Source: a virus
Taxonomy: Duplodnaviria > Caudoviricetes
DNA length: 64,000 nt
Virus record (IMG/VR): IMGVR_UViG_3300025030_000042
Reading direction: 5' to 3' (one strand)
Every line of letters begins with the position of its first letter. The stretch's first letter is position 1. A program made the position numbers and the translations under genes. Below the pieces are notes generated by a model. That model searched no databases and was not told the origin of the DNA. It worked only from the letters and a program-made list of their open reading frames with translations. This document shows positions 17,054 through 35,893 of the stretch, in pieces.

Positions 17054-17125
17054 GGGGCTCGGGCGGTTCAGTAATCGCGTCGGTCTTATAAACCGAGAAA
17101 CCGTGAGCGACACACGGGAGCCCTA
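17054..17125 (+). tRNA. atypical tRNA, anticodon UAU (Ile), no encoded CCA
   Basis: Cloverleaf GGGGCTC/GAGCCCT, GCG/CGC, TCGGT-CTTATAA-ACCGA, CCGTG-AGCGACA-CACGG, discriminator A. Confidence 0.7.
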
Positions 17126-35381: not shown

Positions 35382-35409
35382 GTTATACGATCCACATTGT
35401 TAAATATTT
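35382..35409 (-). promoter_or_regulatory. phage promoter motif copy 16
   Basis: AAATA-N12-GATCGTATAAC. Confidence 0.8.
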
Positions 35410-35410
35410 G

Positions 35411-35479
35411 TTCCTGGGAAAGGATTTGAACCTTTACTTGGGATGATCAGTCCTGCCTCTACCATTGGGCTACCCAGGA
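35411..35479 (-). tRNA. tRNA-like element with 3-bp anticodon stem (loop CUGAUCA)
   Basis: TCCTGGG/CCCAGGA, GCC-CAATGGTAGA-GGC, GGA-CTGATCA-TCC, AAAGG-TTCAAAT-CCTTT; ends A-CAA. Confidence 0.65.
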
Positions 35480-35513
35480 AAAAGTAAACCGGGGTAGTTA
35501 TTGTCTCTACCCC
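35480..35513 (-). terminator. intrinsic terminator
   Basis: GGGGTAG/CTACCCC hairpin then TTTACTTTT. Confidence 0.65.
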
Positions 35514-35529
35514 AGTCTGGTTTGTTATA

Positions 35530-35835
35530 TTACGCAAGATTGAATCCCTTCAGAGTTAGAAAGTAACTCGTCTCATCACGAGCACTCTGAACCACATATC
35601 CCAACTCGACATACCGCGCCAGGGTCGGGGCACTGAAAAGACTCTCGTCGAAGCCCTGCCCCGCCATCAAGTCACCGTTACGAATCAGCACGCGAAGTTT
35701 GCTGACACGATCCACCTTGATACCTGCCGGGCGACCACGCTTGCGCCTCGGAAACTCCACAACACCGCTCTGCTCGATGCTCTGCTCGACACTCTGTACC
35801 GGAACCACCCGAAGCTGAAGATTCATCGTGTCCAT
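35530..35835 (-). CDS. GC-rich early protein with AT-hook
   Basis: RRKRGRPAG; GGAG RBS. Confidence 0.7.
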   Translation of the reverse strand: MDTMNLQLRVVPVQSVEQSIEQSGVVEFPRRKRGRPAGIKVDRVSKLRVLIRNGDLMAGQGFDESLFSAPTLARYVELGYVVQSARDETSYFLTLKGFNLA

Positions 35836-35865: not shown

Positions 35866-35893
35866 ATTATACGATCGGACCTGAAGAATATTT
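35866..35893 (-). promoter_or_regulatory. phage promoter motif copy 17
   Basis: AAATA-N12-GATCGTATAAT. Confidence 0.8.

Follow-up and report, generated by a model that had tools for sequence, protein, structure and literature searches.

The question raised by this locus is what a tRNA-like gene with a shortened anticodon arm does in a phage genome, that is, whether it encodes a decoding tRNA, an RNA with some other purpose or the remnant of a tRNA. The gene is found in a window of 64,000 nucleotides, by which we mean the whole stretch of DNA that was analysed, from an uncultured, AT-rich, T4-like phage of groundwater with a genome of roughly 211 kb. The coordinates of the gene, of its arms and of the neighbouring features are listed in Table 1; gene position i corresponds to coordinate 35480-i on the minus strand.

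Table 1. Features of the tRNA-like gene and its surroundings in the window.
Feature	Coordinates	Strand	Details	Basis
tRNA-like gene, 69 nt	35411..35479	-	U1 = 35479; discriminator A = 35411	Rfam RF00005, ARAGORN, fold
Anticodon arm GGA-CUGAUCA-UCC	35441..35453	-		Direct reading and Rfam alignment
D arm GCC(C)-AAUGGUAG-(A)GGC	35455..35470	-	3 bp and C13.A22 mismatch	
T arm AAAGG-UUCAAAU-CCUUU	35419..35435	-	5 bp, canonical T loop	
Intrinsic-terminator-like hairpin and U-tract ACUUUU(U)	35480..35518 (stem 35518..35486)	-	Abuts the 5′ end of the tRNA	
Early promoter copy 16	35382..35409	-	AAATA box 35409-35405, 13-nt spacer, ATCGTATAAC 35391-35382	
Promoter copy 17	35866..35893	-	Nearest promoter upstream of the tRNA	Promoter listing
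Upstream early gene, 101 aa	35530..35835	-	No family	ORF list; also annotated as a gene in public contigs
Downstream early gene, 86 aa	35102..35362	-	Cys-rich, zinc-ribbon-like, under promoter copy 16	

The 69-nt gene belongs to the tRNA family, and all that is needed for the L-shape, together with the half formed by the acceptor, T arm and elbow, is intact. Rfam model RF00005 matched it over its full length (1-71) with 43.4 bits, where the gathering score is 29, at an E of 6.5e-6 calculated over all 64 kb. Raising the E limit to 10 brought no second Rfam tRNA match in the window. ARAGORN called 35479..35411 as tRNA-Ile(gat), and the cloverleaf is the minimum-free-energy fold of the gene both alone and with its flanks. 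The acceptor stem (UCCUGGG/CCCAGGA) is paired at all 7 of its 7 positions, and the 3′ end consists of the discriminator A followed by CAA, the CCA not being encoded. These features and the T arm are found in the sequence, on the minus strand, just as an earlier note on this DNA had read them. That note had described the acceptor, D and T arms as canonical, which holds for the acceptor and the T arm; the D arm is not fully so, with three pairs (G10-C25, C11-G24, C12-G23) and a mismatch at the loop end instead of 4 bp.

The D loop contains A14, G18, G19 and A21; U8, A9 and A26 are present; and the variable region, CAAGU (5 nt), permits an A15-U48 Levitt pair. The elbow is the reference point from which RNase P and RNase Z measure to find where to cut (PMC11693755), and what such a measurement uses in mascRNA-type elements is in place here, namely the elbow bases G18 and G19 of the D loop and U54, U55 and C56 of the T loop (UUCAAAU), and an uninterrupted acceptor/T stack of 7 + 5 bp. 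In its context (35400-35525, minus strand) the acceptor helix can reach 8 bp via U(-1)-A73, an extension that, in the modelled fold, could make RNase P cleavage shift, or lose precision, by 1 nt.

The anticodon arm measures 13 nt and not the usual 17. Its stem has 3 bp (GGA/UCC), not 5, and closes a 7-nt loop with C32, U33 and A38, so that the loop length and U33 are those of a tRNA. The anticodon GAU is located at 35448-35446 and is followed at 35445 by C37, where a tRNA has a purine. The molecule is 4 nt under the minimal canonical tRNA, and what is missing is two pairs of the anticodon stem. The covariance model RF00005 itself reads the stem as short, since its alignment of the gene leaves out model positions 27 and 28 and one 3′ partner; the arm two pairs short with C37, already described in the earlier note, is borne out by both the sequence and this alignment. 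ARAGORN implies a stem of five positions with two mismatches and a variable loop of 3 nt, a solution that was rejected because the D stem could not form with it. Loop positions 33-38 (35443-35448, minus strand) read UGAUCA, a 6-nt palindrome that exists only through C37. Two such loops could make a 6-bp kissing pair, and as DNA the motif forms a GATC/TGATCA site; we noticed it post hoc, and chance would produce it in roughly a few per cent of cases.

The signals that would assign the gene to an amino acid are mixed. Its acceptor end is of the Asn/Gln type (U1-A72, UCC/GGA), while the anticodon loop and A73 are Ile-like. Two patterns built from the gene's own acceptor end and D stem (acceptor UCCUGGG/CCCAGGA, U8 A9, GCC/GGC D stem and A26, the features that it shares with bacterial tRNA-Asn and tRNA-Gln) gave 46 genomic and 59 metagenomic matches. 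Among the 96 matched tRNAs for which ARAGORN printed an anticodon, 74 were Asn(GTT) and 17 were Gln; the remainder comprised Phe (two), Arg, Leu and Val (one each), and Ile was not represented. All 96 have ordinary anticodon arms, according to the ARAGORN calls and our own reading. Since the patterns were chosen from this sequence, the Asn/Gln result covers the acceptor end alone. The gene differs from bacterial tRNA-Asn and tRNA-Gln in having GAU instead of GUU, UUG or CUG, and A instead of G73. Outside the anticodon arm, the best similarity was 42-44 of 56 positions for Leu, Ile, Gln, Asn and Val tRNAs alike. The idea that the body is that of a tRNA-Asn was dropped, since overall similarity is equal across the five isotypes and only the acceptor end is amide-type. 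The designation as Ile-type made earlier thus fits the anticodon loop and A73 but not the acceptor, whose U1-A72 and UCC/GGA were nearly confined to Asn and Gln tRNAs in the scans.

The U1-A72 pair marks tRNA-Asn and tRNA-Gln for amidotransferases, and tRNA-Gln for GlnRS (PMC9976931). In a comparison with the published bacterial identity determinants (Table 1 of PMC9976931), 6 of the 12 Ile determinants are present (A73, U20, G34, A35, U36 and A38) and the others are absent (C4-G69, U12-A23, G16, U21, C29-G41 and A37); G73, a listed determinant for both Asn and Gln, is also absent, the discriminator being A. By these lists, no synthetase's identity set is complete. The tRNA-Gln(UUG) of Dormibacterota/Chloroflexota MAGs also has a UCC/GGA acceptor and A73 in place of the listed bacterial Gln G73. 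This combination was seen in genome contigs L014-L016, L018, L022, L025, L035-L039, L047, L048, L050-L052 and L056, and in metagenome contigs L066, L092 and L112.

The earlier note had placed the gene between a terminator and an early promoter, and this is confirmed. The terminator hairpin has a 12-bp stem (-18.1 kcal/mol, z -4.6, with 0 of 200 shuffles as stable) and abuts U1, which is itself the final U of the terminator run ACUUUUU, and promoter copy 16 begins 2 nt past the discriminator. According to our own listing, the window contains 18 minus-strand promoter copies with identical spacing. No promoter is found between the upstream terminator and the tRNA-like gene, so its RNA could arise only via read-through from copy 17. 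PHROG and Pfam searches returned no family for the neighbour proteins. The phage carries an RNA ligase (PF09414), and no other tRNA-processing enzyme was found in the window. No RNA runs are listed among the sequencing runs that contain the stretch.

The stretch formed by terminator, tRNA and promoter is present letter for letter in ten loci of JGI, ENA, NCBI and Logan assemblies, including GCA_902725925.1 and JGI 3300025012. As these come from independent assemblies and samples, an assembly error is excluded. Over kilobases, all ten share at least 99.9% identity with the window; they represent one near-clonal population, so that neither the intactness of the gene nor its identity among copies speaks for or against selection. 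No scattered damage is seen, the helices outside the anticodon arm being intact save for C13.A22, and a single lineage of at least 99.9% identity has had no time for changes to build up. In GCA_902725925.1 (L002), about 35 bp are missing within the 101-aa gene (window about 35733-35766) and no gene is called there; the gap may be either a strain deletion or an assembly difference.

In the recombinant contig L117, the match to the window runs from 38752 to 35355, where the contig passes into a different downstream gene, of 81 aa, in place of the 86-aa gene (L117:3392-3810). The swap lies after the first eight coding bases (ATGTCATA), and the tRNA stays with the upstream side. We take this contig to show directly that cassettes are exchanged where the first codons are shared. 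In a relative on the Logan contig L010 there is no tRNA, and similarity to the window begins exactly at 35411. There, positions 642-768 contain promoter copy 16, with the identical 13-nt spacer, before a 72% homologue of the 86-aa protein, and a divergently oriented 204-aa gene is located upstream of the promoter. Judging by this alignment, promoter copy 16 and the zinc-ribbon-like gene travel together as a block. A strain whose flanking genes are about 90% identical is present in runs X15 and X16. In the X15 contig, 11 different letters stand past the terminator U-tract instead of the tRNA start. The X16 contig joins 35486 to 35408 with no alignable tRNA, by a weak joint (25 letters on the promoter side, 80% likeness) at which about 93 unaligned letters may separate terminator and promoter (626-21-306-25-181). 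The tRNA is also absent at the equivalent place in L011 and L118-L120. As far as public data go, the tRNA-like gene appears to be lineage-specific, and while a mascRNA-type element is kept with its host transcript, this one is missing beside both flanks in relatives.

Searches for further relatives gave little. Neither neighbour protein led to relatives in IMG/VR, and the 101-aa gene led to none in JGI metagenomes. In the protein database, the 101-aa protein matched only a 99% copy (P0010), and the homologues of the 86-aa protein were at 72% and next at 50% or lower. Scans of IMG/VR with patterns for the D arm and T loop, for the short anticodon arm and for the 3′ half gave 0 matches each. The acceptor-anchored pattern gave 0 matches in genome contigs (one genome per species, 185,579 species) and one in IMG/VR, which was discarded as an unrelated jumbo-phage tRNA-Asn with a normal arm. 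No short-arm homologue or near relative was found by the pattern scans of IMG/VR, genome contigs and JGI metagenomes. In BLAST against GenBank phages the flanks had no match and the tRNA none that was significant (best E 0.2 over 31 nt); the longest match was the tRNA-Ile(GAU) of a Ruegeria phage, with 79% over 54 nt and a non-significant E of 0.7. The unrelated jumbo phage L009 (IMGVR_UViG_3300009093_000035, 248.6 kb) has 23 tRNA genes within 4.3 kb, including two tRNA-Asn copies, one of which has an acceptor stem identical to that of the gene studied here.

Other tRNA-like genes are present in the same phage. Two of them are located in L123, just upstream of a UvsX-like gene, about 17.5 kb past the window end. 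The gene at L123:2104-2175 (72 nt, Rfam 47 bits) has the acceptor UCCGAAG/CUUCGGA, with U1-A72, and perfect D and T arms. Its only defect is in the anticodon arm, which can be drawn with 6 bp and 6 nt or with 5 bp and 8 nt, and ARAGORN could assign no isotype to it. The gene at L123:2180-2264 (85 nt, Rfam 39.9 bits) presents the anticodon GUU (Asn) on a body with a long variable arm. Two anomalies restricted to the anticodon arm, on amide-type acceptors and in one phage, are a noteworthy pattern, although two cases prove nothing. Within the window, a tRNA-Ile(UAU)-like cloverleaf at 17054-17125 (plus strand) folds perfectly (-29.8 kcal/mol, z -2.8) and was not detected by ARAGORN or by Rfam at E up to 10.

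The reading that we favour, tentatively, is that of a tRNA gene which has eroded and no longer decodes. It would be a passenger between two cassettes of early genes, and RNase P should still be able to process its RNA. Transcripts from promoter copy 17 that read through the terminator would be the sole source of the tRNA-like RNA. Recognition by RNase P is expected, as the acceptor, T arm and elbow are intact (PMC11693755). With the elbow and the 12-bp acceptor/T stack as its guide, the host enzyme would cut at U1, at the end of the terminator U-tract. The 3′ enzymes and the CCA-adding enzyme would then finish the other end, freeing a tRNA-shaped RNA of 69 nt. Its release would separate the upstream message, which would end in the terminator hairpin, from the downstream one.

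Given the loss of two pairs from the arm, the C at position 37 and the mixed identity signals, the RNA so released should neither be charged by an anticodon-reading synthetase nor fit the ribosome. With an arm 4 nt short, the distance from anticodon to acceptor and the phase of the loop are expected to be wrong; by A-form geometry, the two lost pairs would shorten the helix by roughly 5-6 Angstrom and reduce its turn by about 65 degrees. A wrong acceptor-to-anticodon distance is part of the reason why mascRNA is uncharged (PMC11693755). The C at position 37 would also cost the gene the t6A37 determinant of bacterial IleRS. To our knowledge, no decoding tRNA with a 3-bp anticodon stem is known. 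Decoding is, on this analysis, unlikely, and we infer both the processing and the failure to decode from these features. The earlier suggestion that the element is something other than a decoder is reasonable in the same inferential sense, given the arm 4 nt short, C37 and six of the twelve Ile determinants.

Several observations argue for a relic. A strong terminator abuts U1 with no promoter between. In the relatives reached, no such gene was seen next to the upstream or the downstream flank, and the pattern scans brought up no homologue carrying such an arm. The identity signals point to different amino acids, and the gene is placed within an array of 18 promoter cassettes that recombine, as in the L117 swap. 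As in a pseudogene, features essential for decoding have been lost (the full stem and the purine at 37), and pseudo-tRNAs are commonly reported in large-phage genome papers, according to a full-text literature search, which we counted in favour of a relic. The short arm would in that case be damage, not design.

On the other hand, the sequence contains points against erosion. The loss is symmetrical: the 3 bp that remain of the stem are paired, the loop still counts 7 nt and has C32, U33 and A38, and the variable region is 5 nt long. For simple decay to give this result, either two 2-nt deletions would have had to match or a single 4-nt deletion would have had to fall by luck in the right place. 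No mismatch seems to have been acquired in the other stems, and the bases of the tertiary pairs look intact. The gene at L123:2104-2175, with its Asn/Gln-type acceptor and a lesion also confined to the anticodon arm, makes random erosion look less like the cause. The symmetry is weaker evidence than is apparent, as a single 4-nt deletion in a tRNA-Gln(CUG)-type arm (GGAUG-YUCUGAU-CAUCC) could possibly give the present letters; a scan for such an intact arm beside GGCA found none.

The clean and symmetrical shortening, with the remainder intact, would also suit a co-opted mimic or decoy, processed, stabilised and bound like a tRNA but with an arm that can be neither decoded nor cut, which would titrate a tRNA-targeting defence or toxin early. 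The gene sits in the early module, the phage has a second tRNA-like gene with a lesion only in the anticodon arm, and it carries the RNA ligase; the T4 RNA ligase of this sort serves tRNA repair. In addition, defence nucleases cut within the anticodon stem, AriB of the PARIS system between positions 40 and 41 (PMC11464382) and P2 OLD on both strands of the stem (PMC12445682). A decoy should be abundant, however, and this gene has no promoter and stands behind a strong terminator; it is conserved neither in the relatives reached nor outside one phage lineage, and no linked nuclease or target could be identified. The papers listed by a full-text literature search contained none of three phrases with "decoy", and the phage counter-measure known to us is a working, nuclease-resistant tRNA. 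The decoy ideas of the earlier note gain no support from our results, and we consider the decoy unlikely. Quite unlikely, too, is an extended form in which the phage would make a set of tRNA mimics, this gene and L123:2104-2175, with U1-A72 ends, perfect elbows and deliberately non-functional anticodon arms, acting as sponges. Such a set, if real, would be a counter-defence class apart from the known working resistant tRNAs.

The position of U1 as the last U of the U-tract could instead point to a selected punctuation signal, at which RNase P would cut read-through RNA at the terminator end, protecting the 3′ end of the upstream message and uncoupling the downstream cassette. The cut would recreate the terminated 3′ end, the elbow and acceptor/T stack that it needs are intact, and mascRNA and menRNA, mimics with non-tRNA anticodon regions, serve that purpose (PMC11693755). 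We find it very doubtful, since by our reading of the flanks none of the 17 other cassette junctions has a tRNA-like element, Rfam finds no other tRNA in the window at E up to 10, the relatives manage without the element, and a processing signal would need neither so complete a D arm nor an anticodon loop like that of a tRNA. About as doubtful, in our estimate, is a working tRNA-Ile(GAU) whose short stem resists a stem-cutting defence nuclease, as an extreme form of the known resistant phage tRNAs. Anticodon GAU, A38 and A73 match isoleucine identity, AUU and AUC together make up 54-57 per 1000 codons, the closest GenBank phage tRNA is the Ruegeria phage tRNA-Ile(GAU), at its non-significant E of 0.7, and stem weakening gives resistance to P2 OLD (PMC12445682). 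That precedent lost one pair by substitution and its arm keeps 17 nt, however, whereas here 4 nt are gone. The decoder also has no precedent known to us with a 3-bp stem, would have lost t6A37 through C37, has none of C4-G69, U12-A23, G16, U21 and C29-G41, and carries the U1-A72 that marks Asn and Gln tRNAs.

Research is active on defences that cut tRNAs and on the phage tRNAs that evade them. Every phage escape from such defences that we know of uses a working tRNA, and a processed but non-decoding tRNA mimic, if true, would be a new tactic. If the gene is merely eroded, as we prefer to read it, it is still passed as tRNA-Ile(GAU) by ARAGORN and Rfam, so that automatic annotation and codon-supply analyses of huge phages will miscount it. 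It would then also be an example of tRNA remnants moved by the shuffling of promoter cassettes.

Among the known systems, mascRNA and menRNA share with this gene an intact acceptor, T arm and elbow and a non-canonical anticodon region. They are also located at the 3′ end of a longer transcript, and the RNase P cut, the CCA tail and the lack of aminoacylation are all predicted for the phage element. The two are eukaryotic and conserved, and in them the D arm is reduced and the stem equivalent to the anticodon stem is longer, whereas the phage gene has a full D arm, a tRNA-like anticodon loop and no conservation.

The nuclease-resistant phage tRNAs are alike in that the change is confined to the anticodon stem-loop, and a shorter anticodon stem is an established feature of resistance. 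The T5 tRNA-Lys escapes AriB (PMC11464382), and the coliphage tRNA-Thr that resists P2 OLD has an altered motif and a stem one pair shorter, the pair being lost by U43A in a tRNA that keeps its 17-nt arm and remains functional (PMC12445682). These tRNAs match a host isoacceptor and have been shown to decode, while here the identity signals are mixed; with an arm of 13 nt in place of the full-size 17, the gene is, by its arm length, not a member of that class. With the tRNAs and pseudo-tRNAs of T4-like and jumbo phages it has in common a covariance-scored membership of the tRNA family, a large T4-like phage as carrier, no encoded CCA, and a predicted co-transcription with protein genes in a fast-changing region. 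It differs from them in an anticodon stem 2 bp short with the other stems and the elbow bases kept, and in its solitary position behind a terminator instead of within a tRNA cluster.
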